Counted from the stretch's first letter, positions 3,623 through 21,396 are shown. The stretch is DNA of 64,000 nucleotides from a virus (IMGVR_UViG_3300038696_000205:1-64000); one strand, 5' to 3'. Notes: a model not told the origin generated them from the letters alone. Translations and numbers: made by a program.

Positions 3623-4708
3623 TTAAATTCCACCACCATCTGTGATAGTCCAATTATATGTGTTAATTAATGTGTTACGTGCTGCTTCTGCTGCTCCTCC
3701 TAGCGTGTATTTTGAACCCCCGAAATTTATACTGATTCCGTTAGTTGGTGCTTGCGCTGCCCAGCTTATTAATGTTGCATCGTAGTTTGGTGTGGATAAG
3801 CCATTTGTAAATCTTAAAAATCCGCTAAAAACAAGAACTTGATTTATATCCCAGTTTGCTAGAGAGTAATCAAATAAACGAGCTTCTTGAAACATGTAAT
3901 TTATTTTCGTAACATTTCCAACATTCCAATTTGTAACATCTAATATTGATAAAGATGAGCATGCAAAAAACATATCTTGCATTGTTTGTACATTTCCAAC
4001 ATCCCAATTTTCAACGTTTAATGTGGTTAAAGATGAGCAAAGTCTGAACATAGCTTGAGTATTAATAACACTACTAACATCCCAATTCTCAACGTTTAAT
4101 GTGGTTAAAGATGAGCAATTTAAAAACATTAAACGCATATCAGTCACACTACTAACATCCCAATTCTCAACGTTTAATGTGGTTAAAGGTGAGCAATTTA
4201 AAAACATTGAACGCATATCAGTCACACTACTAACATCCCAATTCTCAACGTCTAATGTTGTTAAAGAAAAACAGTTTTCAAACATCCGAAATAAGCCATT
4301 AGAACTAGAAATAACAGGATAATCGGTAGCAGTCGTATCTAAATTAGAACACCCATTAAATGCTTGTTCAACACTAACATCAAAACTCCCCCAATTAGCA
4401 ATGTTTAAAATCTTATCTTTATCTCCACTATTACCAAACCTACACCCATTAACAACCCCATCCATAGTAATCTCATAGATACCTTGCGTGTCGTAACGGT
4501 GTGAAACCTCTGCTTGGTTATAAGATGTAATTAAATCGCTAGTTCCATCCCCCCAATTAACAACTGCGTTGATAGTGGATGAACTAACTAATGGTAACTT
4601 AAACGTATGGTTATCACTTGAGCCACTGCCTATATTACGAGTGTCAACGGTAAAGATGAACCGCTTATCTTTTAAATTACTTAATATTTGTTGTTGTAAT
4701 AATATCAT
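3623..4708 (-). CDS. BspA-family / DUF285 repeat surface protein with PKD-like N-terminal domain
   Basis: 26-aa repeats WDVSSVTDMxxMFxxCxxLxxLxVEN; VNWGDG..H.Y PKD-like motif; NYD.TLI.WA..YTLGGAAEAARNTL C-terminus typical of the family. Confidence 0.85.
   Translation of the reverse strand: MILLQQQILSNLKDKRFIFTVDTRNIGSGSSDNHTFKLPLVSSSTINAVVNWGDGTSDLITSYNQAEVSHRYDTQGIYEITMDGVVNGCRFGNSGDKDKILNIANWGSFDVSVEQAFNGCSNLDTTATDYPVISSSNGLFRMFENCFSLTTLDVENWDVSSVTDMRSMFLNCSPLTTLNVENWDVSSVTDMRLMFLNCSSLTTLNVENWDVSSVINTQAMFRLCSSLTTLNVENWDVGNVQTMQDMFFACSSLSILDVTNWNVGNVTKINYMFQEARLFDYSLANWDINQVLVFSGFLRFTNGLSTPNYDATLISWAAQAPTNGISINFGGSKYTLGGAAEAARNTLINTYNWTITDGGGI
3925..4290 (-). repeat. 78-nt coding tandem repeat (5 units) in BspA-like gene
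   Basis: (c/t)ccaatt recurs at 3925, 4003, 4081, 4159, 4237. Confidence 0.9.
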
Positions 4709-8133: not shown

Positions 8134-10209
8134 TTAATTACTTAGTGGCATATTAATTTTACCGTGTGACTTATAACCTACTATTTCAAAATCATCAATA
8201 CTATAAGAATAAATATCTTTAGCTTTATTTAATTTTAATCTAGGTAATTCAAAAGGTTTGTTTAGTAATTGAGTTTTAAGTTCCTCAACATGGTTACTAT
8301 AAATGTGTACGTTAGTTAAATCACCAATAAGTGTTTCTGGAATCATACCGACTTGTTGTGCTAACATTTCTAATAACAATGCATACGATGTAATGTTAAA
8401 CGGTAACCCAAGACCCACATCAACACTACGTTGATGCCATTTAAGTGAAAGTGCTCTTTCTGGTGTTGGCTCCCAATAGTTATTCTCAAAGTCGATAGTT
8501 AAATCATCATTATATTCCATACCAGTTTCATAATTATTACTAAACCATTCCTTATATCTTTCCTTATAAGTTAATTCTCTAGTATAAACCTCAAAGGACC
8601 AATGACAATTATGGTTAATAATATTATTGACGGTATAAGTATGGTTGTTGGCTACTGATAAATTGTATACTGTACCCTCAAAACCATGAATCGTTTCTTT
8701 ATCATATACCCGCAACCAAAGTTTATCACCATCGAAGATAAATTTATCACTATTATTTTTATTCTTTGAGGTTTGAATTGAATAAGTATTATTTTGGTTA
8801 ACTTCTCTACCTTCAATGATAGTTTTTTCTGGTCTATGTTGATAATATAATGAACACTTTAAACCTACTTTAGCATATAATATTTGCATATTAAAAGCAA
8901 TGTTATCAGATATTGTGGTGATACTATAACCATCTTTTGTTTTACAACCATCGGCATCTTCATACCCTTCAATAAATTTAACTATTAATTCTTTTTTCCC
9001 ATTTAATATGAATTCTGGTATTTTTTTATTTTTAGCACCAGAACCGAATTCACTTAAAATCAATTCCCATTTCTTTTGTTTAAAACAATACTTTTTAACG
9101 TTTTCACCAGAGTTAGCCAATTTTGCTAAAGGTACGATACCACCAATCTTCCCATTAATTAACTCAAATTGTGTATCGTTAATACTTAATAATGTTTCAC
9201 CCTTTTCGATTAACCAACCATCACCTAAAAAGTAACCCATTAAATACCATTGTCTTTCGTCATCAATAATTTCTTCATAATTTTTTGATGAAAATTGGTT
9301 TTGTTTTAGTGAGTAATTAATTATAAAGTCTTCTTCCTTTTGTGGTATTGGTATGGCAACATAATCACCATTTTCCATTTCACCAGCATCAATATAACCC
9401 TTACCTTTGATTAAAAATGGGTGATTATGAGTACATTTTATTGGATGAGGGGAACCACAATATCTAAATGACACTAATTTTGTATCATGAACTTTAGTTT
9501 TCATTAACTCATAAACCTCATTATATGAACCATCCTCCGTTAAAACCAAATCACCCTCACGTACTTTTTCAATTGGTATGTATTCACCACTAATTGTTTT
9601 TACTAGAGAACCCTCAACAAAACAAGGTGGTAATGTCATATTCTCAATTTCATCAACGTTCCAGGCACTGACAAGCATTCGTCTACTATCTGGATTAGTT
9701 TTAAGTGTATTTATTAAATCCTGAATCTGATTTACACCAGGATTATCATCGGATGCTCCCCAACCAACCCATTGTTGACCATATATCGGACCAAGCTCAC
9801 CCCACTTATTTGCGAAGTCTTCATTTGTCTTAATTTTATCTACAAACTCGCTCATTGATAAATGTCTAAATTCATTAGGGGCTATTTTTTTATAGTCTGA
9901 ATTATCCATAACCTCACATCTAATTTGTTTTAAATAAGCAGCATAAGAATCGCCATTCCAAATATTAACCCCGTTTAATACTAGGGGTCTAATATTGGTG
10001 CCACCGCTTAAAAACCAAAGTAACTCATAAATAATCCCCTTAGTAAACATTTTCTTTGTCGTTAACAATGGAAACCCATCACGCATGTCTATTTTTAACG
10101 TACTAGAGAATAATGATAATGTACCAGTACCAGTTCTATCACCCTTAACGTCACCATCATTCAATATCTTCCTAACTATTTTTAAATATTTTTTATCTAC
10201 TTTATTCAT
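8134..10209 (-). CDS. thyA: thymidylate synthase ThyA containing an intein
   Basis: DRTGTGT, FPLLTTKK, LGPIYGQQW, NPDSRR..VSAWN, LPP[intein]CH, QRSVDVGLGLPFNI.SY, HIYSNH motifs. Confidence 0.97.
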   Translation of the reverse strand: MNKVDKKYLKIVRKILNDGDVKGDRTGTGTLSLFSSTLKIDMRDGFPLLTTKKMFTKGIIYELLWFLSGGTNIRPLVLNGVNIWNGDSYAAYLKQIRCEVMDNSDYKKIAPNEFRHLSMSEFVDKIKTNEDFANKWGELGPIYGQQWVGWGASDDNPGVNQIQDLINTLKTNPDSRRMLVSAWNVDEIENMTLPPCFVEGSLVKTISGEYIPIEKVREGDLVLTEDGSYNEVYELMKTKVHDTKLVSFRYCGSPHPIKCTHNHPFLIKGKGYIDAGEMENGDYVAIPIPQKEEDFIINYSLKQNQFSSKNYEEIIDDERQWYLMGYFLGDGWLIEKGETLLSINDTQFELINGKIGGIVPLAKLANSGENVKKYCFKQKKWELILSEFGSGAKNKKIPEFILNGKKELIVKFIEGYEDADGCKTKDGYSITTISDNIAFNMQILYAKVGLKCSLYYQHRPEKTIIEGREVNQNNTYSIQTSKNKNNSDKFIFDGDKLWLRVYDKETIHGFEGTVYNLSVANNHTYTVNNIINHNCHWSFEVYTRELTYKERYKEWFSNNYETGMEYNDDLTIDFENNYWEPTPERALSLKWHQRSVDVGLGLPFNITSYALLLEMLAQQVGMIPETLIGDLTNVHIYSNHVEELKTQLLNKPFELPRLKLNKAKDIYSYSIDDFEIVGYKSHGKINMPLSN
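8608..9624 (-). mobile_element. cis intein (339 aa) with LAGLIDADG endonuclease domain
   Basis: Starts CFVEGS after LPP, ends NHN before catalytic Cys; block B CTHNHPF; YLMGYFLGDG and FIEGYEDADG motifs. Confidence 0.95.
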
Positions 10210-10534
10210 AGGTTACTTTTTTTTCGGTTACTATTATTTGGTTTTGTATTGCGTATGTCGCCATATCGGACCAACTTTCAAAATCAACTTCCGTTAGTAT
10301 ATCACCATTTGGGTGAATTTCCTTTAAGTTTATTTTTTTAGTTTCGGAATCAATACGATAAAACCAATCCGTTTTATTAAAATTAATTGTTTTTTTTATA
10401 ATTAAGTCACCCATGTGCAATGCATCACAAGAACCCCTGGGACAAGGCACCATACGACCTTCCGTCATAGAGTCAATTTCACACCTACTACACGACCAAT
10501 ATTCCTCTACCGTATCTTCTAGAAATTTTTTCAT
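10202..10534 (-). CDS. hypothetical protein
   Basis: Intact ORF overlapping thyA start; Cys-rich N-part. Confidence 0.75.
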   Translation of the reverse strand: MKKFLEDTVEEYWSCSRCEIDSMTEGRMVPCPRGSCDALHMGDLIIKKTINFNKTDWFYRIDSETKKINLKEIHPNGDILTEVDFESWSDMATYAIQNQIIVTEKKVTYE

Positions 10535-10535
10535 A

Positions 10536-10967
10536 TTATATTTTATATTCGGTAATGTGTTTACCTAATTTATTGTTTAACGCTTTAATACTATCCTTAT
10601 GGAATATCCCATATTGGTCAAAGTACTCAACGTTTTCAGCCATCATGGTCTTCAATTCGTTCTCACTTTTAAATTGCTCCTTATCCTTAAGAATTTTAAT
10701 CTCCTTTAATATCTTATCGACATCTACCGAATCATTCTTACTAAAGGCATACGCCTTTATGTTACTGTTCAACACCTTACCTTGACTATCGGCAGTCTCG
10801 AACCTCATATAATCCGTAGGTGAAACCTTAAGGTAGGTATATGACCCACCGTTTTTAAAGATAATTGTTAAATTTTCTGTACTCTTGTCCAATGTTGAGG
10901 ATAAAATATTAGATGATTCGTATATCACGTCAATTTTATCGTCATTTTCTACTCTTTGTAATATCAT
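10536..10967 (-). CDS. KTSC domain protein
   Basis: SSNI....D.....LTIIFKNGGSYTY..V....Y..F..ADSQGK..N.NIK pattern. Confidence 0.8.
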   Translation of the reverse strand: MILQRVENDDKIDVIYESSNILSSTLDKSTENLTIIFKNGGSYTYLKVSPTDYMRFETADSQGKVLNSNIKAYAFSKNDSVDVDKILKEIKILKDKEQFKSENELKTMMAENVEYFDQYGIFHKDSIKALNNKLGKHITEYKI

Positions 10968-10984
10968 AATTTTTAGTTTTAATG

Positions 10985-11188
10985 CTATATACCCGTTTTA
11001 TAGTATACTTTTTTTATTTTATTTACCTTACTTAATTCAAATATTTCACCACTAATATAACCGTCAAGGTCACTTTCTATGATAAGGTAATTACCACTAA
11101 AAGAAACTTTTGCGTTAAAAAAATCAAGTTTTTCCCGTGAATTATTACTATTCACCAATATTGAAACTTCGTCATATATCGTATCCAT
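10985..11188 (-). CDS. hypothetical protein
   Basis: 67-aa ORF co-oriented with downstream genes. Confidence 0.65.
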   Translation of the reverse strand: MDTIYDEVSILVNSNNSREKLDFFNAKVSFSGNYLIIESDLDGYISGEIFELSKVNKIKKVYYKTGI

Positions 11189-11301
11189 ATTTAATCAACT
11201 ATTTACTTTACCTTACAAATATACTATTTATTTAGTAGAAAATCAAGCTTGTTTTTCCGAATATAATTAGCTATATTTGTAGCGAAGATAAAACACAATT
11301 T

Positions 11302-12129
11302 ATGAATAGAGAAATTATACCAAAAGTAAAATTAATTATGGGCAAGGCCAATGAAACGGCCAGGGAGTATGATGACTCTATGGTGAGACCAGAACATATT
11401 ATGTTGGCAATTTTAACTGACGATAGTAATTCATGTATTACTTACCTATCGAAAATGGGTGTAAATTTAGACAACCTTTATGATGAAATAACCGAATCAA
11501 TAAAGTCACAGGAATTAAAGACCACCAACATATATGTTAGGAAACTTAAACTACCTTTTAGCGATGAGGTTAAGTTGGCATTTAAATTGCTAGATAAAGA
11601 ATCAGAAGGTGTTGGGTTTACCGTTATTAATACGTCACACATATTACTGGCCTTATTAACATTCCCAAAACTACACATTACTAAAATTTTAAAAACAAAA
11701 AAAGTCACACATACAACCTTTAAAAATAAAATTATGGAATTAAGTAACGGTTTTAAGGAAAATATAGAAGTAATTAAAAATTCCATTAAAGATGATGGTG
11801 ATGATTTAACGATAGGGCGTGGTAAAAATGAAAATCAGACCATTAAAAATGAAACAAAAACCCCAGCACTTGATAATTTTTGTAGGGATATAACCAAGGA
11901 TGCCAAAAATGGTAAATTAGACCAAGTTATTGGTAGGGCCAAGGAAATCAAACGTGTTTCACAAATTTTAGCCAGACGTAAGAAAAACAACCCAGTCCTT
12001 ATAGGTGAACCTGGAGTTGGTAAGTGTTTTTCTTCTGATACTGAGGTAGTTATTAAAAATGATTTAACTGGTGAAGTATTTAAAATTAAAATCGAAGATT
12101 TATTAAAACGATTGCCAACCCCTAGTTAA
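11302..12129 (+). CDS. clpC: ClpC-type AAA+ ATPase fragment 1 (Clp N-domain to Walker A of NBD1) plus 34-aa N-intein
   Basis: EHIMLAIL Clp-N repeat, [44 protein letters not shown] then CFSSDT; TATATTTG promoter box upstream. Confidence 0.95.
12025..12126 (+). mobile_element. split intein 1, N-fragment (34 aa)
   Basis: [34 protein letters not shown] then TAA; intein block A directly after GK of Walker A. Confidence 0.9.
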
Positions 12130-12177
12130 CTAATTTAACGTTAGGTATTGACTTTTTAAATTAAACCGTATATTTAT

Positions 12178-13623
12178 ATGAAATATATAGATATGAAAAT
12201 TAATTATAAAAAGAATGGTAACCATAGTGTTGAATTTAACGAATATTTTAAAACTGTTGATGATTTAAAATTATTCATTAAAAATAATAATAAATTTATA
12301 AATGTAGGTGTTTTAACTAATGATATTACTAACATTTATTATGAGTTAGTGAAATTAGAAGAATCTATCAAGTCAAGCGTTTTAGATAGATTCTTAGTTA
12401 GTAAATTTAATTTTAAATTCAAAAGACCAAATAATATTAATTTTTGGTTAGAAAGAGGTTTTGGAATTTATGAATTTAATGAATATGTTGGGGTTAAAAT
12501 AAATAAATTAGGAAATAATACCGAAAATATATTCAAGTTTAACAATTTTAAATTTAAAATTTTAGGAATTCCAAAATGTAATTTATGTGATTCTGATTTA
12601 ATAATTGAACCTACAATTGGTAGGTATGAAATTAAAGGGTGTTTAAATATTAATTGTGAAACCCATAAAAATGAAACGGTAAGTACAATTAAACAATTAG
12701 CATTTTTACCAATTAATTTATATGAAAATAAAAATAATAGAATTAAGGTTAATAGTAAGTTATATAAAGAGTATTGGTTATTAAAAGGGTTGTCTTATGA
12801 TATTGCTAATGAAAAAATTAATGAAATTAAAGAGTTGTTAGTTAATATCACTGTAAACTCTTTTGATTATTATAAAATTACAACTGATTTAAATGATTTT
12901 GAAATAAATAAAATCATTAATAAGCAATCATCTTGGTGTATTGAACATTGGTTAAGTAAGGGGTTAGATATTAACGAGAGTAAAAGTAAAGTTAGTGAGG
13001 TACAAGGTAAAAATGCTGATAAATTAGTTAAACTTAGAAAAAAATATCCAGAAAGATATGGCGCAACGACTGAAACACAACTACAGTATTGGATAAATAA
13101 AGGTTATAACTTAAAGGATGCTGAAATTAAATTGAGTGAGAGACAAACAACATTTTCAAAAGAAATATGCGTCCAAAAATATGGTGAAGAAAAAGGATTA
13201 GAAAGATTTATTAATAGACAAGAAAAATGGTTAAATAATTATAAAAGAGTTAATTTTTCTAAAATTTCACAAGAATTATTTTGGGATGTTTTAAATAACA
13301 ACCCAAATATTTTAAATGAAAATATTTATTTTGACACATTATTAGATGGCAATAGAGATGATTCTGGTAAAAATAATGAATATCGACTAAAATTGGGGGA
13401 ATCTTATATATTACCAGATTTTTTTGATAAAACAAACGGTAAAATTATTGAGTTTGATGGAACTTATTATCATAGAAAAACTCCAGAAAATAGTAAAAGG
13501 GAAGATAAGAGAGATAAGATGATTTTAGATGGTGGCTATAAAGTATTACACGTAACTGAAAAGGATTATAGAGAAGATAAGCGAAAAGTAATAAATAAAT
13601 GTATAGAATATTTAAAAGAATAA
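12178..13623 (+). CDS. free-standing putative homing endonuclease (Vsr-like PD-(D/E)xK C-terminal domain)
   Basis: LPDFF..KIIEFDGTYYH..D..RD...GYKVLHV motif; CxxC..CxxxxC; repeated W-x-x-[KR]-G units; lies between intein halves. Confidence 0.8.
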   Translation: MKYIDMKINYKKNGNHSVEFNEYFKTVDDLKLFIKNNNKFINVGVLTNDITNIYYELVKLEESIKSSVLDRFLVSKFNFKFKRPNNINFWLERGFGIYEFNEYVGVKINKLGNNTENIFKFNNFKFKILGIPKCNLCDSDLIIEPTIGRYEIKGCLNINCETHKNETVSTIKQLAFLPINLYENKNNRIKVNSKLYKEYWLLKGLSYDIANEKINEIKELLVNITVNSFDYYKITTDLNDFEINKIINKQSSWCIEHWLSKGLDINESKSKVSEVQGKNADKLVKLRKKYPERYGATTETQLQYWINKGYNLKDAEIKLSERQTTFSKEICVQKYGEEKGLERFINRQEKWLNNYKRVNFSKISQELFWDVLNNNPNILNENIYFDTLLDGNRDDSGKNNEYRLKLGESYILPDFFDKTNGKIIEFDGTYYHRKTPENSKREDKRDKMILDGGYKVLHVTEKDYREDKRKVINKCIEYLKE

Positions 13624-13627
13624 AAAT

Positions 13628-13990
13628 ATGAATGAATTAAAAAAAATTACAAAATCATTTGATATGTCAAATTATAGTATATTAACTGATACTGGGTTTG
13701 AAAAATTAGAAAAGTTGCATGAAACTATCCCATATGAAGTTTACCAACTTAAATTAGATAACGGTAACGAACTTAAATGTGCTGATAATCATATAGTATT
13801 CTTCCAAGATACTTTTGATGAAATCTTCGTAAAAAATCTAAAAGTTGGAGATAAGATTGAAGTAGAAGGTAATAAAGGAGGGTCAGTTGTTGAAGTAATC
13901 AATTTAGGTTATGAAGAAGTAATGTACGATTTTGAACTTATAGAGGGTTCTAATAGACGTTATTATACCAATGGAATTCTATCACATAAT
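13628..13990 (+). mobile_element. split intein 1, C-fragment (121 aa)
   Basis: Block B KCADNH, block F MYDFEL, block G GILSHN, +1 Thr. Confidence 0.9.
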
Positions 13991-15085
13991 ACGGCAATAG
14001 TCGAGGGAATCGCAAGCCTAATCAATGAAGGTAAAGCACCAAGAGTATTACTGGATAAAAAGATATACTCATTAAACCTAACCTCAATGGTCGCTGGTAC
14101 AAAATACAGAGGACAATTCGAGGAAAGGATGAAGGCCATTATGGACGAGTTAGAAGAAAGTAAAAACATTATACTCTTTATAGACGAACTTCATACAATC
14201 GTGGGTACTGGAAATGCATCTGGTAGTATGGATGCCGCAAATATTCTTAAACCAGCATTAGCCAATGGCGGAATACAGTGTATTGGTGCCACCACGTTAG
14301 ATGAGTACAGGGAAAATATCGAAAAGGATAAGGCCCTTGATAGAAGATTCCAATCAGTTATAGTGGAAGAAACTACAATGGACGAAACCCAAACTATACT
14401 TGAAAATATAAAGGGTAAATACGAAGACTACCACAAAGTGACCTACACTGATGAGGCTATTGTGGAATGTATTAAATTATCCAATAGATACATATCGGAT
14501 AGGTCCATGCCAGATAAAGCCATCGATGTACTTGATGAAGCTGGGGCATCTACTAATGTAAACCAAAAAATACCAGAGATAATCAAAAAACTGGAGGCCA
14601 GAAAAGACCAAATAAATATTAGTAAACTAGAAGTAGTTAAAAAACAAAATTACGAGGAAGCTGCCAAACTTAGAGATGAAGAACGCAAAATAAACGATGA
14701 GTTGGATAAGTCAAAAAAAGAGTGGAACGATTCTTTGGATAAAAAACGTACAATAGTCGATGTTGAATTGGTGTCGGAAGTTATATCCATGATGACTGGA
14801 ATTCCAATTAGTAAGGTTTCCTCACAAGAAAACAAAAAACTTATAACCATGGACAAGGATTTGATGGGTAAGGTTATCGGTCAAGATGAAGCGGTCAGTA
14901 AAGTCGTAAGAGCAATTAAAAGGAACCGTTTGGGTATCAAGGATAAATCCAAACCAATCGGGTCATTTATATTCCTAGGTTCAACTGGTGTAGGTAAGTG
15001 TATTTGCTCGAACACTCAGATTAAAATTAGGTCTAAAATCGATGGTGTTGTTAAAACCATCAATATAGGTGAATTGGATAGCTAA
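13628..15085 (+). CDS. clpC: ClpC fragment 2: C-intein 1 (121 aa), rest of NBD1 and UVR middle domain to Walker A of NBD2, then 28-aa N-intein 2
   Basis: SHN|TAIVEG; AGTKYRGQFEER, LFIDELHTIVG, DKALDRRFQ, PDKAIDVLDEAG, QNYEEAAKLRD, VIGQDEAV, FLGSTGVGK|CICSNT. Confidence 0.95.
   Translation: MNELKKITKSFDMSNYSILTDTGFEKLEKLHETIPYEVYQLKLDNGNELKCADNHIVFFQDTFDEIFVKNLKVGDKIEVEGNKGGSVVEVINLGYEEVMYDFELIEGSNRRYYTNGILSHNTAIVEGIASLINEGKAPRVLLDKKIYSLNLTSMVAGTKYRGQFEERMKAIMDELEESKNIILFIDELHTIVGTGNASGSMDAANILKPALANGGIQCIGATTLDEYRENIEKDKALDRRFQSVIVEETTMDETQTILENIKGKYEDYHKVTYTDEAIVECIKLSNRYISDRSMPDKAIDVLDEAGASTNVNQKIPEIIKKLEARKDQINISKLEVVKKQNYEEAAKLRDEERKINDELDKSKKEWNDSLDKKRTIVDVELVSEVISMMTGIPISKVSSQENKKLITMDKDLMGKVIGQDEAVSKVVRAIKRNRLGIKDKSKPIGSFIFLGSTGVGKCICSNTQIKIRSKIDGVVKTINIGELDS
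14999..15082 (+). mobile_element. split intein 2, N-fragment (28 aa)
   Basis: CICSNTQIKIRSKIDGVVKTINIGELDS then TAA, directly after GSTGVGK. Confidence 0.9.
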
Positions 15086-15159
15086 TTATCACCCAAAACC
15101 AGTTGAACCAATATTTAATTATCAACAAATAGGTCTTTCTCAAATAATTAACATAGTTA

Positions 15160-16710
15160 TTGCTAAACGTAATAGGTATGTTAATTATAAAAGAGAGAAA
15201 AAAGTATGAATTTAATGAAGTCTTTAAGGCTAATAATGATTTTAATGAATTTTTATTATTAGAATATAATAAACTTAATTTTGATAATGATGATATACAA
15301 TCATCAATTAAGATTCTATATGATAAGTTAGTTAATGATGAGGGAGTTGTCAAATACTTAAGATTAACTAGGTGGGTATCAAAAGAATTTAAATTTAAAT
15401 GTAAGAATATATTACAAGAGTGCTTCTGGTTAGAGCGAGGGTGGTCATCTAATGAAACCAAAGAAAAGATTTCAAATATTATGGTGGAACGAAGTAATAA
15501 GGCTAGTATAACTAAAAGTGAATTAAAAAAAGATATTATATTTGACGACACTGAAAAAGATATTAAATATAATAAAATTAAATTTAAATCAATACATGAA
15601 CCAAGGTGTGGTAAGTGTAATTCAACTTTAGAATTAAAAAAACGGAATAAAAATAATATATTGGGTGATTTTTATTATGAAATAATAAAATGTTCTAACG
15701 ATAGTTGTGAAACCCATAATATGGGTAGGAATAATAAATATCGTGCGTTTCTACCATCAATTAAGGCTGAATGTATTATAAACGAGATAACTAATAATAT
15801 TAAGGGTAGTAATAAATTATGTGTAAAGTCTTGGATTAATAAGGGTTATTCAGAAAAAGAAGCTAAAAATATAATTAGTGAAATCCAAAGTACTAACTCG
15901 AAATTAGTTAAAAATAGATTTATAGTTAGTAAAGAAAATTTAAAAATGAATGGCTTTAGTGATGATGAAATAATTAAAATTTGTCAAACGCCAACTCGGA
16001 GAGAATTTTATGAAGGTAAAGGACTTACCGATGATGAAATTACAAGTAAGATAAGGAAACAACAAAAGTACGCTGCATCATTTGTTGATTATGAAAAAAG
16101 ATTATTACCTAGTAATATTGAATATTGGGTTAATAAAGGACATGGGTACATTGAGGCTAAACAAAAAGTAATTGAAAGACAAACAACATTCTCAAGGGAA
16201 ATATGTATTGAAAAATATGGTGAAATCGAAGGGTTAAAGGTATTTACTGAAAGACAAAATAAGTGGTCTAAATCATTAAATAATGGTGGTAAAATGAAGA
16301 ATGGTTACTCTAAAATTTCTCAACATTTATTCCATATATTATTAAATTCATATGAAGTTGATGATAGGGTTAAAATTATGTTCGCAACCCATAATGGTGA
16401 ATTTAAGTTAAATAAATGTGAAAATGAGGGGGGTATTTGGATGTATGATTTCACAGATGTAAAAAATAAAAAAATAATCGAATATCATGGGGATATGTTT
16501 CATGGTAACCCTAAAAAATATTTAGCAGAAGATTATCCACACCCTTTTAGAAAAACAATCACTGCACAAGAAATGTGGGATAAAGATAAAAAGAAGATGG
16601 ATATTGCTTATCAAAATGGTTTTGAGGTATTGGTAATTTGGGATAGTGAATATAGGTGGGGGAATAAACAAAAAATAATCGATAAGTGTCTCGCATTTAT
16701 CAATAAATAA
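15160..16710 (+). CDS. second free-standing putative homing endonuclease, paralogue of 12178..13623
   Basis: Shared WLERG, C..C, CETH, YW.NKG..ERQTTFS.EIC..KYG, SKISQ.LF, KIIEY.G..FH motifs; start may be ATG 15178. Confidence 0.8.
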   Translation: MLNVIGMLIIKERKKYEFNEVFKANNDFNEFLLLEYNKLNFDNDDIQSSIKILYDKLVNDEGVVKYLRLTRWVSKEFKFKCKNILQECFWLERGWSSNETKEKISNIMVERSNKASITKSELKKDIIFDDTEKDIKYNKIKFKSIHEPRCGKCNSTLELKKRNKNNILGDFYYEIIKCSNDSCETHNMGRNNKYRAFLPSIKAECIINEITNNIKGSNKLCVKSWINKGYSEKEAKNIISEIQSTNSKLVKNRFIVSKENLKMNGFSDDEIIKICQTPTRREFYEGKGLTDDEITSKIRKQQKYAASFVDYEKRLLPSNIEYWVNKGHGYIEAKQKVIERQTTFSREICIEKYGEIEGLKVFTERQNKWSKSLNNGGKMKNGYSKISQHLFHILLNSYEVDDRVKIMFATHNGEFKLNKCENEGGIWMYDFTDVKNKKIIEYHGDMFHGNPKKYLAEDYPHPFRKTITAQEMWDKDKKKMDIAYQNGFEVLVIWDSEYRWGNKQKIIDKCLAFINK

Positions 16711-16745
16711 ATATAAATAAATAAAAATAAATAAAAATAAATAAA

Positions 16746-17414
16746 ATGGTGAAAGAAAAGGATAATTATTATACGTACTTAACTGGATATATTAATGACG
16801 TGATACAACCAAGTGGTGAAGTAGAATCTACTTCTGAGTTATTTAGTGATAAAAAACTAAAATTGTGGATAGTAGATGAATTAATGAAAATACCCGAAAT
16901 TAGTAAAACATTACTATGTAATTACTTTCATGAGTTATATGATTACATATTAGAAAATGAAGTTACAGATTTAGAAGACTTAGTTAAATCATTCTGTTTT
17001 AATAAAATAACTAAATGGGAAATGAATTCAGATTCCAATACAATAATATTAAAAACAGATGAATCTAGTAAAAAAATAACTAAAACAACTAAAATTAGTG
17101 AATATGAAGTCGAAACCCCAAGCGGTTGGGTTGATATAGAAGCACTACACGAGACTATTGAGTACCAAGTGTATGAATTAACCTTATTAAATGGTTATAG
17201 TTTTAAATGTGCTGATAATCATATTGTGATTAATGGTAAGGGTGAAGAAGTGTTTGTTAAAAATTTAAATGAAGGTGATGAGGTTAAAACAGACGATGGG
17301 GTCAGTAATGTTATCTCGGTTATTAATTTAGGTTATAAAGAAACTATGTATGACCTAGAATTAGATGATGATTCAGATAGAGTATATTATACCAATGGGA
17401 TTTTATCACATAAT
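16746..17414 (+). mobile_element. split intein 2, C-fragment
   Basis: KCADNH, MYDLEL, GILSHN, +1 Thr; last ~118 aa clearly similar to C-fragment 1. Confidence 0.9.
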
Positions 17415-18188
17415 ACGTATTTAACAAAATTATTGGCAGAGCACATATTTGGTGATGCCGATGCGCTAATTAGAATGGACATGTCCGAATACATGGAAAA
17501 ACATTCGGTATCTAGATTAGTTGGTGCACCTCCAGGATATGTGGGCTATGAGGAAGGTGGTCAATTAACCGAAAAGGTTAGACGTAAACCTTACGCAGTA
17601 ATTCTTTTTGATGAAATAGAAAAAGCACACCCAGACGTATTCAATATATTATTACAATTATTGGACGAAGGGCAATTAACGGATTCATTGGGTAGAAAGG
17701 TAAACTTTAAAAATTGTTTAATAATCATGACATCTAACGTAGGTGTTACCGAATTAAATAGTTTTGGTAAGAATATGGGCTTTGAAACCAAGAATAAATC
17801 GTTGGACGAACAGGAAAGGTCTCGCTCTATTATTCAAAAGGCACTTAAAAAGAAATTTAAACCAGAGTTCTTGAATAGAATTGATGAGGCGATTATCTTC
17901 AACAGCTTAAAACAAGAGGATATCCATAAAATTATATATATTGAATTGGAAAAATTAAAAGTTAGGGTCAAGGAAACTGGATTCGACCTAAAATTCAATA
18001 AAAGTGCTGTGGAATACATAGCTAAAAAAGGATATGATGAAGCATATGGGGCAAGACCACTTAACAGGGCAATCCAACAATACGTGGAAGACCCGATTGC
18101 CGATGAAATTCTAAACGGTAAATTTAAAGAGGGTGATACAATAAAAGTAACCCTAGACAAGAAAACGGATAAAATTGCATTAACATAA
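16746..18188 (+). CDS. clpC: ClpC fragment 3: C-intein 2 (223 aa incl. N-terminal extension) plus rest of NBD2
   Basis: SHN|TYLTKLLA; RMDMSEYMEKHSVSRLVGAPPGYVGYEEGGQLTEKVRRKPY, LFDEIEKAHPDV, IMTSNVG, PEFLNRID, YGARPLNR. Confidence 0.95.
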   Translation: MVKEKDNYYTYLTGYINDVIQPSGEVESTSELFSDKKLKLWIVDELMKIPEISKTLLCNYFHELYDYILENEVTDLEDLVKSFCFNKITKWEMNSDSNTIILKTDESSKKITKTTKISEYEVETPSGWVDIEALHETIEYQVYELTLLNGYSFKCADNHIVINGKGEEVFVKNLNEGDEVKTDDGVSNVISVINLGYKETMYDLELDDDSDRVYYTNGILSHNTYLTKLLAEHIFGDADALIRMDMSEYMEKHSVSRLVGAPPGYVGYEEGGQLTEKVRRKPYAVILFDEIEKAHPDVFNILLQLLDEGQLTDSLGRKVNFKNCLIIMTSNVGVTELNSFGKNMGFETKNKSLDEQERSRSIIQKALKKKFKPEFLNRIDEAIIFNSLKQEDIHKIIYIELEKLKVRVKETGFDLKFNKSAVEYIAKKGYDEAYGARPLNRAIQQYVEDPIADEILNGKFKEGDTIKVTLDKKTDKIALT

Positions 18189-18191
18189 AAT

Positions 18192-18219
18192 AAAAACCCA
18201 CCATTCGGTGGGTTTTTTT
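18192..18219. terminator. intrinsic terminator after clpC fragment 3
   Basis: AAAAACCCACC-ATTC-GGTGGGTTTTTTT. Confidence 0.9.
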
Positions 18220-18231
18220 ATATTTATATTT

Positions 18232-18849
18232 ATGATACAAGATATACTAAGTAAAAAATATCCTAAATATTTAGATGCTCTGGATATTTACGAGAAAGAG
18301 GGTAGTTTAACCCTAGCAAGAATAATTATTAAACCTGAGTTTAGAAAAACAGGTGTTGGTAGTCAGATAATGACCGATTTAATAGATTATGCTGACGAAA
18401 CTAATAAGATAGTAGTACTTACACCTTCCGAAGATTTTGGTGGTCTTAAAAGCAGTCTAATTAGATTTTATAAACGTTTTGGTTTTAAGGACAATAAGGG
18501 TCCGAATAAAAACTTTGAATTTAGGGAGGCAATGATTAGAGAGCCAAAACTAAATGAAATGAAAAATAATAAATTTAAAGGTGGGTTAAGTGATAACTTA
18601 ACTATTAATGATATTGCAAATAAATTCAACGTAACCGTAGACTCGTTAAACAAGGAATTAATTATGGGGATTAAGGTCGAAATGGAACATGTTAATAATA
18701 AAGAGTCCGCAAAAGAAATAGCCATGGACCACTTAACCGAATTACCAAATTATTATACTGAATTAAATAATATGGAAGTTAGGGCAAAAAATAAATTAAA
18801 TAAATCCGTTAAAGAAATGGTCCACGAAGCTTTAAGAAGAAATATATAA
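18232..18849 (+). CDS. GNAT-like domain fused to DUF5661-like domain
   Basis: IIIKPEFRKTGVGSQIM..LIRFYKRFGF (GNAT); GIKVEMEH..AKEIAMDHL.E.PNYY (DUF5661-like); start moved to ATG 18232 since the track start lies inside the terminator. Confidence 0.65.
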   Translation: MIQDILSKKYPKYLDALDIYEKEGSLTLARIIIKPEFRKTGVGSQIMTDLIDYADETNKIVVLTPSEDFGGLKSSLIRFYKRFGFKDNKGPNKNFEFREAMIREPKLNEMKNNKFKGGLSDNLTINDIANKFNVTVDSLNKELIMGIKVEMEHVNNKESAKEIAMDHLTELPNYYTELNNMEVRAKNKLNKSVKEMVHEALRRNI

Positions 18850-18911
18850 ACAAAAAAAGTTAAGGCTATTGATAAAATAACCTTAACTTTAATTTTATTT
18901 CTTTAAAAGAA

Positions 18912-19121
18912 TTACTTCTTCCCTTCGGTAATCTTAGCTATCTTAGCTTCTAAATTAGCTATCTTACTTTCTAAAAGGTTACCAGCGTTAGCTTTTTGTT
19001 CAGCAATCCATTGTTTTTTCTTAACCGCAACAGCCTCAGTTACAATACCATCGATTAAATCAACCAATTCGTTTTCAGTAATTTTTACAGTTTTTGCGCT
19101 TTTCTTTAAGTTATTTGACAT
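18912..19121 (-). CDS. small coiled-coil hypothetical protein
   Basis: 69-aa ORF convergent on a bidirectional hairpin. Confidence 0.7.
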   Translation of the reverse strand: MSNNLKKSAKTVKITENELVDLIDGIVTEAVAVKKKQWIAEQKANAGNLLESKIANLEAKIAKITEGKK

Positions 19122-19971: not shown

Positions 19972-21396
19972 TTACATCTTAACGGATGGTAATAAATCCC
20001 TTATTTTTTTATAATTTTTAGCTCCTATATCTTTTTCACTTACCGCTATTCTAACCAATGAGCCACCGTTCGTACTATCCAAATATTTTATTTCATCTGG
20101 TATTTCACTCAGTGGGTTCCCCAATAGGTTAATAAATACTAAATTTTTTAAGTTACCGATTTCTTTTGGTAACGCAATAATCTTATTATTGGGTAAAGCC
20201 AACGATTCCAAATGTTTTAGTTTACCAATACTTGGGTGTAAATCATGTAATTTAGAATCACATATAATCAACTGCCTAAGCTCGGTAAATTTAGTCATAT
20301 TGGCTAATTTAGGTATTTCCCTATTTATTAATTTAATGACTGGGGTAACGTCCAACATTAAATCAAATAAAGCCTGTGTCCAACCAAATTTAATGAGATA
20401 ATCCAAATAAACGTTATTATCTATCTTGAATTTCTCCTTGGCCATGGTGGTTAATTCACTATTAAAAAAATTAGCCACACCCTCACTCTGTGAAATCACA
20501 TTTAAATAAAAATCGGCAGTGTTGCTTTGATTTTTATTCTTAACCTGTTTTGTTTCAAAATGTATCTGATAAATCATTTCATTATCCAATACATTGGTCC
20601 CACCCTTGAAAAAGTCATTATTGATTACAATATAAATCTTAGACTTCTTACCGTCTGGTCTTAAATTATTCTTAGTATAAGAATTAAACATAGTATTACC
20701 AGCTTTAGCCGTGCACCAACTCGCAAATTTATCAAAAATAACACTGGCCTCGGTTGTCTTAGGAATGAATACCGTAAATTTTCTATCCCTAACTGGAATT
20801 TCGGCCTGACCCATCTCAACAAATTTATTCAACGTCTTTTCAATTTCAGATGCATCCCTTTCTATAAAGGGGTCAACCGCATCATATAATTGACTAAGTG
20901 ACGAGTATTGATTTATATTAGTGGGGTCCGAAACATTCAACAACACATAACTTAACTTACAATACTCCTTAAATTTATTTTTCCTTTTATTACCTTCAAA
21001 TATTTGCAAGTATTCCTCGGCCTGTGGTAAATCCTCATCAACGAACCTTATCGCTTCTTCCAAATTACCATCCTTAATCAGGTTAGAGAAAATGTTCAAC
21101 ATCCACTGCGTATTTGTTTTATTCTTAGTCGGGTCGGAGTGAACCATAGAATCGAATACCTCACGGGATATGAATATCTTATTGGTTTTCTTGATTAAAT
21201 CCTCACCAGACCTATTAACCTTAACCGTAGACATGGTAAACACATAGGCCATAACGGACCTACCCTCAATAACACCCACATCTTGATACCCAGATTCCAT
21301 CATTTCACTATGTAGCTCATCAACTAATTTTTCATTAGTTATGTCACACACATTGAACTTGTTAATTAAAAATTCTAATCTACTTTTATTTTCCAT
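19972..21396 (-). CDS. protein with C-terminal leucine-rich repeats
   Basis: LHPSIGKLKHLESLALPNNKIIALPKEIGNLKNLVFINLLGNPLSEIP; N-part has DPT.NK..QW and WCT motifs. Confidence 0.8.
   Translation of the reverse strand: MENKSRLEFLINKFNVCDITNEKLVDELHSEMMESGYQDVGVIEGRSVMAYVFTMSTVKVNRSGEDLIKKTNKIFISREVFDSMVHSDPTKNKTNTQWMLNIFSNLIKDGNLEEAIRFVDEDLPQAEEYLQIFEGNKRKNKFKEYCKLSYVLLNVSDPTNINQYSSLSQLYDAVDPFIERDASEIEKTLNKFVEMGQAEIPVRDRKFTVFIPKTTEASVIFDKFASWCTAKAGNTMFNSYTKNNLRPDGKKSKIYIVINNDFFKGGTNVLDNEMIYQIHFETKQVKNKNQSNTADFYLNVISQSEGVANFFNSELTTMAKEKFKIDNNVYLDYLIKFGWTQALFDLMLDVTPVIKLINREIPKLANMTKFTELRQLIICDSKLHDLHPSIGKLKHLESLALPNNKIIALPKEIGNLKNLVFINLLGNPLSEIPDEIKYLDSTNGGSLVRIAVSEKDIGAKNYKKIRDLLPSVKM

Follow-up and report, generated by a model that had tools for sequence, protein, structure and literature searches.

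A viral DNA stretch of 64,000 nucleotides (the window, which comprises the opening 64 kb of an IMG/VR virus record of 119,322 bp with a CheckV completeness of 34%) very probably carries a clpC gene, from a large uncultured phage, that is fractured twice and whose three products would be joined after translation by split inteins. Between positions 11302 and 18188 of this DNA, which has a G+C content of about 31%, five open reading frames (ORFs) lie head to tail on the plus strand. They encode extein 1 (E1) followed by an N-terminal intein fragment (IntN1); a nuclease; a C-terminal intein fragment (IntC1) followed by extein 2 (E2) and IntN2; a second nuclease; and IntC2 followed by extein 3 (E3) (Table 1). 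Both breaks fall between the lysine and the threonine of a Walker A motif, one in each AAA+ module. The initial annotation of this DNA had described a ClpC chaperone divided among three genes by two split inteins with an endonuclease gene in each gap, and on re-reading the ORFs we found its coordinates, lengths and fragment anatomy to be exact. The gap ORFs as listed by the ORF finder are 481 aa (gap 1) and 516 aa (gap 2) long.

The three exteins together have the composition of a ClpC-type protein. Pfam domains occurred across them in the expected order (Clp_N, AAA, AAA_lid_9, UVR, AAA_2 and ClpB_D2-small), and the coordinates of the NCBIfam ClpB model ran on from one extein to the next (4–208, 207 to about 600, and 608–848). 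Extein 1 matched the NCBIfam ClpB, ClpA and ClpC models at positions 4–208. Extein 2 contributes the Walker B motif and lid of the first nucleotide-binding domain (NBD1), a UVR-type middle domain and the start of the second (NBD2), and extein 3 the NBD2 Walker B motif, pore loop, MGF loop, sensor 2 and D2-small domain. Both Walker B motifs can be read within exteins (ILFIDE and ILFDE), and the Walker A motifs are whole only once the exteins are joined. Scored singly against the ClpB model, the fragments reached 115, 389 and 354 bits, against a full-length cut-off of 1232. A ClpP-docking loop of the form [LIVM]-G-F in NBD2 is absent from ClpB. In extein 3, K-N-M-G-F aligned with the ClpP-docking F-N-L-G-F of a ClpC1-type chain, and the middle domain is of the short UVR type according to Pfam. 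The best PDB sequence matches of extein 3 were ClpC and ClpC1 chains, with expectation values (E) of 1e-81 to 1e-83. The order of the Pfam and NCBIfam domains and these PDB matches bear out the claim that the joined exteins form an 834-aa protein of the ClpC type.

Searching IMG/VR with extein 2 returned 418 relatives, the best 80 of which were read and were 61–73% identical to the query; 120 related loci were examined in all. Most of the best 80 relatives have an uninterrupted, single-ORF clpC, in which the sequences on either side of the two junctions abut to the nucleotide, with GVGK followed directly by T at both. The interrupted arrangement recurs as well. An exact 25-nt pattern scan of metagenome contigs recovered two independent contigs from other samples (L129 and L130), which are colinear with 10001–18549 and 10618–18952 of the window at 97.3% and 99.2% identity. 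Neither contig has lost any of the five ATG starts or the five TAA stops, and a 98%-identical middle fragment is found on eight contigs from JGI, Logan and ENA. Because these contigs repeat the ORFs, the layout is neither a chance arrangement nor an assembly artefact, and the stops, which the initial annotation had allowed might be assembly errors, are genuine. An exact 34-nt pattern spanning the junction of extein 1 and IntN1 found no match in metagenome contigs, and the 6.9-kb region had no megablast match among 50,697 phage records. The nearest named phage records are Al-Shayeb-type megaphage contigs, which are just 56% identical in extein 2.

Comparison with L129 and L130 also revealed how variation is distributed along the locus. 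The cassettes are 99–100% identical between the strains, with 0–1 differences in about 4.3 kb of intein and nuclease DNA, and there are 47 substitutions in extein 2, which fall in two patches near both homing sites (14008–14053 and 14545–14896; ratio of nonsynonymous to synonymous polymorphism (pN/pS) 0.08). More mosaic patches lie at 10000–10600 and 18200–18549. Having the same cassettes flank a diverged extein would fit a recent spread of the cassettes, or recombination. Across the exteins, pN/pS between these strains was 0.00–0.08, with no frameshifts or stops.

The sequences that interrupt the two Walker A motifs are in-frame halves of split inteins. In a phmmer search of the PDB, IntC1 was nearest to CatC, from the solved Cat consensus of atypically split inteins (6DSL_B, E 2e-9), and also matched VidaL (E 0.008) and gp41-1. 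The residues of class 1 inteins are present, namely Cys1, the His of A-D-N-H, S-H-N and Thr+1. Cys1 was invariant across all IntN fragments, and the block B His, the block F Asp, Ser-His-Asn and Thr+1 were invariant in 22 aligned IntC sequences. The CatC match and these invariant positions sustain the earlier assignment of split inteins at both Walker A sites. In 12 relatives inserted at the NBD1 motif (site 1), the IntN1 pattern C-x-x-x-D-T-x-V-V-x-x-N-D-[LI]-T-G-E is kept. IntC1 shares 57% identity with IntC2, which stands at the NBD2 motif (site 2).

The HINT fold was checked on a contiguous relative in place of the separate halves of the window. This 173-aa mini-intein of the same family (L094:5851-6369) occupies site 2 of an otherwise single clpC ORF. 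Its AlphaFold2 model (predicted local distance difference test 77.6) has the HINT intein fold; VidaL was the top Foldseek match (1.5e-8), and there were 64 PDB matches at E ≤ 0.001, with inteins throughout the top ranks listed. In the model, a helix spans residues 28–42 and the sole internal low-confidence stretch is a linker at residues 45–59. The inteins of the window are cut at this linker after helix alpha-1, with IntN1 ending within or after the helix and IntN2 early in it, and the linker motif of IntC2 matches that of the contiguous intein. Such an atypical split site, termed S2, is that of the AceL-TerL and GOS-TerL type, in which natural IntN fragments are 15–37 aa long (PMC13014065). 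IntN1 and IntN2 fit this range, and their block B motif lies in IntC. In the tree, the L094 intein is nested among split forms, as an unsplit survivor or a re-fusion.

One part of the initial annotation required correction. It assigned 223 aa to the segment that precedes and ends in SHN in fragment 3; the count and the SHN end stand, and only about 120–130 of these residues are intein, the first 92 or so being an orphan extension. This extension had no tblastn match in the 120 related loci and no relative in Pfam, PHROG or Atlas. We estimated that 92 codons would stay open by chance in DNA of about 30% G+C in about 5 of 10,000 cases. Other site-2 IntC ORFs have unrelated extensions of 33–164 aa. 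In one locus the IntN2 ORF has no stop and continues into a domain containing GGIAKPEYKFTVLI (L019:9009-9521), and in another this GGIAKPEYKFTVLI domain is the N-terminal extension of the IntC2 ORF (L030:10935-11426), so an additional domain at the split point can go with either of the intein halves.

Both gap genes are predicted to encode free-standing homing endonucleases of the Vsr-like/I-Bth0305I family. The protein from gap 1 (HEG1) matched Pfam DUF559, narrowly (21.2 bits; cut-off 20.6), and MTES_1575. The protein from gap 2 (HEG2) had no Pfam match on its own; it matched PHROG 22677 at E 8e-25 and is 32% identical to HEG1 over its full length (E 4e-46). The two share the C-terminal motif D...IIE[FY].G..[YF]H...D, and Asp414 and Glu425 were invariant, and His432 nearly so, in 15 nuclease relatives. 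A profile of these 15 relatives had I-Bth0305I (3R3P, E 1e-3) as its best PDB match, followed by Vsr at about 0.1. Foldseek likewise placed 3R3P at the top for an AlphaFold2 model of the nuclease (probability 1.00, target template-modelling score 0.66), followed by 1CW0. Pfam, the PDB profile and Foldseek therefore agree with the Vsr-like endonucleases first annotated in both gaps. The invariant start Met of the alignment identifies the ATG codons at 12193 and 15178 as the real starts. The site-1 nuclease of L044 shares 57% identity with HEG1 along its entire length, and those at site 2 of L006, L015 and L030 share 54–61% with HEG2. In addition, both proteins have a Cys4 module and four [FYH]-W-[LIV]-x-[KR]-G repeats, each followed by helices in the AlphaFold2 model, and they probably serve as modules for DNA binding. 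The subtype of the nuclease domain, which is either short or has an insert of about 20 aa, is independent of the insertion site, which suggests module shuffling.

The 120 related loci include many other states of the two sites. Both sites are empty in the majority. A cis-splicing LAGLIDADG intein of 364 aa occupies site 1 in three loci (L014, 2763–3854; L026; and L052). A split intein accompanied by an intact nuclease gene is found in the window (both sites), in L044 and L111 (site 1), and in L006, L015, L030 and others (site 2). Only decayed nuclease remnants accompany the split intein in L012 and L019, and there is no nuclease gene in L020, L060, L064, L087 (site 1) and L095, in which the ORFs overlap or lie a few dozen nucleotides apart. 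Within one gene family, every stage can be seen, from the empty site and the cis mini-intein, through invasion by a nuclease and splitting, to decay of the nuclease and a split gene that has none. The double break is not unique to the window contig: the search of IMG/VR for other tripartite clp genes, which the initial annotation had proposed, found clpC broken at both sites in at least six contigs (L012, L019, L064, L087, L090 and L107), the last two of which have a divergent intein at site 1. Furthermore, a collection of 5.8 billion metagenome proteins contains at least 18 protein clusters of middle fragments of about 490 aa with the order IntC-E2-IntN. The cis LAGLIDADG intein and a split intein occur together in L091-93, and a third, divergent split intein lies about 3 codons upstream of site 1 in L065, L066, L072, L090 and L107. 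With at least three intein types using it, the NBD1 P-loop is a hotspot.

Between relatives, the ratio of nonsynonymous to synonymous substitution rates (dN/dS) of IntC was about 0.05–0.4, pairs without nuclease genes included; for IntC1 it was 0.05–0.37. An intein half is visible to selection only by way of the host protein that it has to release, which makes this the strongest indirect evidence that splicing works. In two other loci (L119:4537-9050 and L122:4678-8883), the gene of the terminase large subunit (TerL) is divided into three ORFs by two atypical split inteins. The first interrupts a Walker A motif (GRQxGK/C...HN/T, slashes marking the junctions) and is a sister of the clpC inteins, and the second is AceL-TerL/Cat-like (...HN/C). 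Vsr-like nuclease genes lie in three of the gaps of these loci, and the gene in the second gap of L122 appears by eye to be GIY-YIG-like. As TerL is likewise in three pieces, double fracture is not peculiar to clpC.

Two inteins in one gene raise the matter of pairing, and the trees and alignments suggest how it is kept. All 21 of the 21 site-2 IntCs formed one clade in a maximum-likelihood tree (99/99 support), so a single switch of site suffices. Both Walker A sites have the DNA core CTGGnGTnGGTAAG/ACG, which is imposed by the motif and offers a plausible route, ectopic homing, for the jump of one intein lineage from site to site. We scored site signatures on 12 site-1 and 22 site-2 IntN sequences and on 12 site-1 and 21 site-2 IntC sequences, and found no exceptions. 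Position 13 of IntN is Asp at site 1 (12/12) and Lys at site 2 (22/22), and position 27 of IntC shows the converse, with Lys in site-1 and Asp in site-2 inteins. IntC positions 11–13 are of the F-D-M type at site 1 and the T-K-I type at site 2, and block F reads Y-D-F and Y-D-L, respectively. These signatures persist where site-1 (L044 and L020) and site-2 (L030) inteins share one C-terminal insertion, so each IntN and the N-terminal region of its IntC seem to evolve together. The middle fragment, being IntC-extein-IntN, would cyclise on cross-reaction, so the inteins would have to be largely orthogonal. The fixed signatures suggest that they are, and the site-specific residues are candidate pairing determinants. 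A broader account, which we offer tentatively and at somewhat less than even confidence, is that one jump between Walker A sites gave rise to an orthogonal, paralogous pair of atypically split inteins whose pairing is set by a few co-varying residues, that the three-piece state is stable, selected and outlives the nucleases, and that this would be the first documented natural case of tandem protein trans-splicing.

Among the alternatives, the one that survives best, itself unlikely, is a useful cross-reaction of the intein pairs that would yield cyclised E2 or a single-ring E1-E3 chimera in addition to the full-length ClpC or in its place. In favour of it, engineered cyclisation uses the topology of the middle fragment, the two IntCs are similar, as noted above, and C-x-x-x-[DN]-T-x-[IV] is common to the IntN fragments. 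The chimera is possible because the breaks stand at equivalent positions of both AAA+ modules. However, the inteins of the two sites belong to distinct lineages separated by one switch of site, their fixed and partly charge-reversed signatures in IntN and the N-terminal part of IntC are those expected under counter-selection, and cyclised E2 would contain neither a complete NBD1 nor a complete NBD2.

We favour a mechanism in which each cassette consists of an atypically split class 1 intein and a free-standing Vsr-like/EDxHD nuclease gene, present here in two paralogous copies. A five-gene transcript would give three ClpC polypeptides, with precursors of about 31, 55 and 54 kDa, and two nucleases. 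The 34-aa IntN1 would dock with IntC1, and the 28-aa IntN2 with IntC2, and each rebuilt HINT fold would perform standard splicing through Cys1, Thr+1 and the terminal Asn. The predicted product is the 834-aa ClpC (about 93 kDa) with its P-loops restored (GEPGVGK-TAIVEG and GSTGVGK-TYLTK), and its predicted junction peptides are GEPGVGKTAIVEG and GSTGVGKTYLTK. If splicing did not occur, both ATP sites would remain interrupted. The nucleases would be the selfish drivers, presumably cutting the intein-free clpC of co-infecting phages and thereby spreading the cassettes.

Several features weigh against trans-splicing into a working ClpC. Block B reads A-D-N-H, with Ala at the position, three residues before the His, that is usually Thr or Ser; this may slow the first acyl shift. 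Among the three canonical nucleophiles at +1, Thr is the least frequent. The 28-aa IntN2 is short, ending inside a helix of the contiguous relative, and the 92-aa extension on fragment 3 is unexplained. With 57% identity between the IntCs, some cross-reaction, by cyclisation of E2 or joining of E1 to E3, is conceivable from sequence. Finally, the gene of the partner protease, clpP, was not found in the 119-kb record, which says little because the record is about one third of the genome.

The block B Ala would also accord with the intein halves being mere non-covalent clasps, so that three polypeptides assemble into a working ClpC with no peptide bond formed. The split NrdA of Aeromonas phage Aeh1 reportedly associates in this manner. 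We consider this quite improbable here. None of the residues that splicing requires (Cys1, block B His, block F Asp, His-Asn and Thr+1) varies among relatives, and ATP binding should be lost if about 150 aa of unspliced intein kept the Lys and Thr of each Walker A loop apart. Cat, VidaL and gp41-1, which are the nearest relatives of known structure, splice actively (PMC13014065).

We attach equally little weight to the view that selfish cassettes have ruined a dispensable clpC and left no functional ATPase. In favour of that view, clpC is an accessory gene for a phage, clpP was not found in the 119-kb record, and the nuclease genes do look intact and recently mobile given the near identity of the cassettes with those of L129 and L130. 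Nevertheless, the exteins are free of frameshifts and stops, remain 61–73% identical to uninterrupted relatives and have the low pN/pS values given above; the intein halves are under purifying selection even after loss of the nuclease; and split forms persist in many diverged lineages. Such persistence and purifying selection would not be expected unless splicing continued to rescue a useful protein.

Removal at the RNA level by group I or II introns with nuclease ORFs, or an assembly or sequencing artefact, is scarcely credible: group I introns do house Vsr-like nuclease genes (Dassa et al. 2009, PMC2677866), but Rfam had no intron match within 10500–19000 even at E up to 1, and we accordingly rejected the RNA introns that the initial annotation had also considered; at each gap, intein motifs continue the reading frame of the extein on either side; and we rejected an artefact because the ORFs, starts and stops recur in L129 and L130, with the same ORFs and stops in eight further contigs. 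The Rfam matches at 18159–18286 were weak and terminator-like only.

The expression signals of the locus fit a single unit. Of the 141 ORFs in the 119-kb record, 31 have a box of the TAnnTTTG type 30–36 nt upstream of the ATG, where 7.7 would be expected; among the five genes, only fragment 1 has one. This TATATTTG box is likely to be the promoter of the whole five-gene unit. The hairpin downstream of fragment 3 is the sole strong terminator of the cluster, and fragment 2 starts 4 nt past the stop of nuclease gene 1. Given a box only at fragment 1 and a terminator only after fragment 3, the five genes are probably on one transcript, running from the box at 11272 to the terminator at 18192. A sigma-70 promoter scan found 52 sites, compared with 49 in shuffled sequence, and thus no excess. 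The promoter type suggests a Bacteroidota-like host. No Shine-Dalgarno sequences were visible in the 119-kb record.

Table 1. Features of the fractured clpC locus, in window coordinates
Feature	Coordinates	Strand	Description
TATATTTG box	11272..11279	+	TAnnTTTG type; 30 nt upstream of fragment-1 ATG; likely promoter
Fragment 1	11302-12129	+	275 aa: 241 extein residues to GEPGVGK, then C-initial 34-aa tail
Extein 1 (241 aa)	11302..12024	+	Pfam Clp_N; linker; first NBD1 strand up to Walker A lysine (GEPGVGK)
IntN1 (34 aa, Cys1) and TAA	12025..12129	+	N-fragment of split intein 1
Nuclease gene 1 (HEG1)	12178..13623	+	Start ATG 12193, Met6 of listed ORF; predicted Vsr-like/EDxHD
Fragment 2	13628-15085	+	485 aa: 121 aa to SHN, 336-aa TAIVEG...GSTGVGK, C-initial 28-aa tail
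IntC1 (121 aa, ends SHN)	13628..13990	+	Blocks B, F and G; PDB phmmer match to CatC
Extein 2 (336 aa)	13991..14998	+	Pfam AAA, AAA_lid_9, UVR; NBD1 remainder to NBD2 Walker A lysine (GSTGVGK)
IntN2 (28 aa, Cys1) and TAA	14999..15085	+	Aligns with 15 site-2 IntN fragments
Nuclease gene 2 (HEG2)	15178..16710	+	Start ATG 15178; ORF finder gives TTG at 15160
Fragment 3	16746-18188	+	480 aa: 223 aa to SHN, then 257-aa TYLTK...
Orphan 92-aa extension, fragment 3 N-terminus	16746..17021	+	No relatives; putatively translated
IntC2 (linker and C-fragment, ends SHN)	17022..17414	+	Core from about 17061; site-2 clade 99/99
Extein 3 (257 aa) and stop	17415..18188	+	Pfam AAA_2 4e-60, ClpB_D2-small
Bidirectional intrinsic terminator hairpin	18192..18217	.	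11 bp, T-run flanks; 4 nt past fragment-3 stop

Inteins are also present elsewhere in this part of the window. A thymidylate synthase gene at 8134–10209 on the minus strand is a 691-aa ORF with a contiguous intein that includes a LAGLIDADG domain (Pfam Thymidylat_synt, Intein_splicing and LAGLIDADG_3). Counting this intein, there are three within 10 kb. Two minus-strand genes, at 3623–4708 and 19972–21396, encode DUF285/BspA-type and classical leucine-rich-repeat proteins, an unusual cargo for a phage.

These data bear on how natural trans-splicing is understood. The published natural split inteins that we found all join two polypeptides, and a two-reaction, three-product case has so far been a matter of engineering only. 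In literature that covered few subscription journals, we found no split inteins in ClpB or ClpC or in jumbo or huge phages, and no natural gene with two split inteins. What appears to be new is that one gene has two such breaks in tandem, that the host is ClpC, that paralogous inteins use both Walker A sites, and that there is evidence for a stable three-piece state in many lineages. A natural middle fragment must avoid self-cyclisation, and the paralogous pair should therefore reveal how orthogonality evolves. Inteins with a short IntN of 28–34 aa at a Lys(-1)/Thr(+1) junction are of practical interest for semisynthesis and, if the pair is truly orthogonal, it would be ready-made for three-segment ligation. 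Evidently, the P-loop DNA that the two ATP sites of a double-ring AAA+ machine have in common allows selfish elements to invade both.

The closest published parallel is the fractured genes of Dassa, London, Stoddard, Schueler-Furman & Pietrokovski 2009, who described 26 loci, each ‘fractured in two’, with the Vsr-like nuclease family in half of them (PMC2677866). Both breaks reported here have the layout of such genes, with IntN and IntC in frame, a nuclease ORF interposed and uninterrupted alleles in relatives. The phage setting, the free-standing endonuclease between the intein halves, the common strand and the short spacers are also alike. They differ in that there are two fractures and three polypeptides here, in a ClpC host that is not among the published hosts, and in that the split is atypical and N-proximal instead of lying at the canonical nuclease-insertion site. 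The inteins themselves resemble AceL-TerL, GOS-TerL, Cat and VidaL (6DSL, 6VGV; PMC13014065, PMC10189870) in their short IntN, long IntC, S2 split and Cys1, and in the match of IntC1 to CatC, and their sisters occur in the TerL genes of L119 and L122. Unlike that group, they interrupt the Walker A motifs of an AAA+ unfoldase, have Thr+1 instead of Cys+1 and Ala in block B, and occur as two paralogous copies per gene with site-specific signature residues.

The remaining parallels concern single components of the locus. With I-Bth0305I and the EDxHD family (3R3P), the nucleases share the C-terminal D...E...H...D catalytic domain, and this was their best PDB match by both profile and fold. In contrast to I-Bth0305I, they are 476–510 aa long, carry an N-terminal Cys4 module and four W-x-x-K-G helical repeats, and stand free between intein halves instead of being intron-encoded. 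The inteins of archaeal replication factor C (RFC) small subunits (NCBIfam PRK04132) are also inserted right behind a Walker A lysine, and NCBIfam models of RFC with intein matched across the fragment-1 junction weakly (E 1e-4 to 2e-3); those inteins are contiguous, splice in cis and reside in cellular genomes. Engineered tandem trans-splicing (PMC12707363) likewise joins three segments, the middle one with IntC at its N-terminal end and IntN at its C-terminal end. That system is man-made and uses unrelated orthogonal inteins, whereas the clpC locus has natural paralogues.

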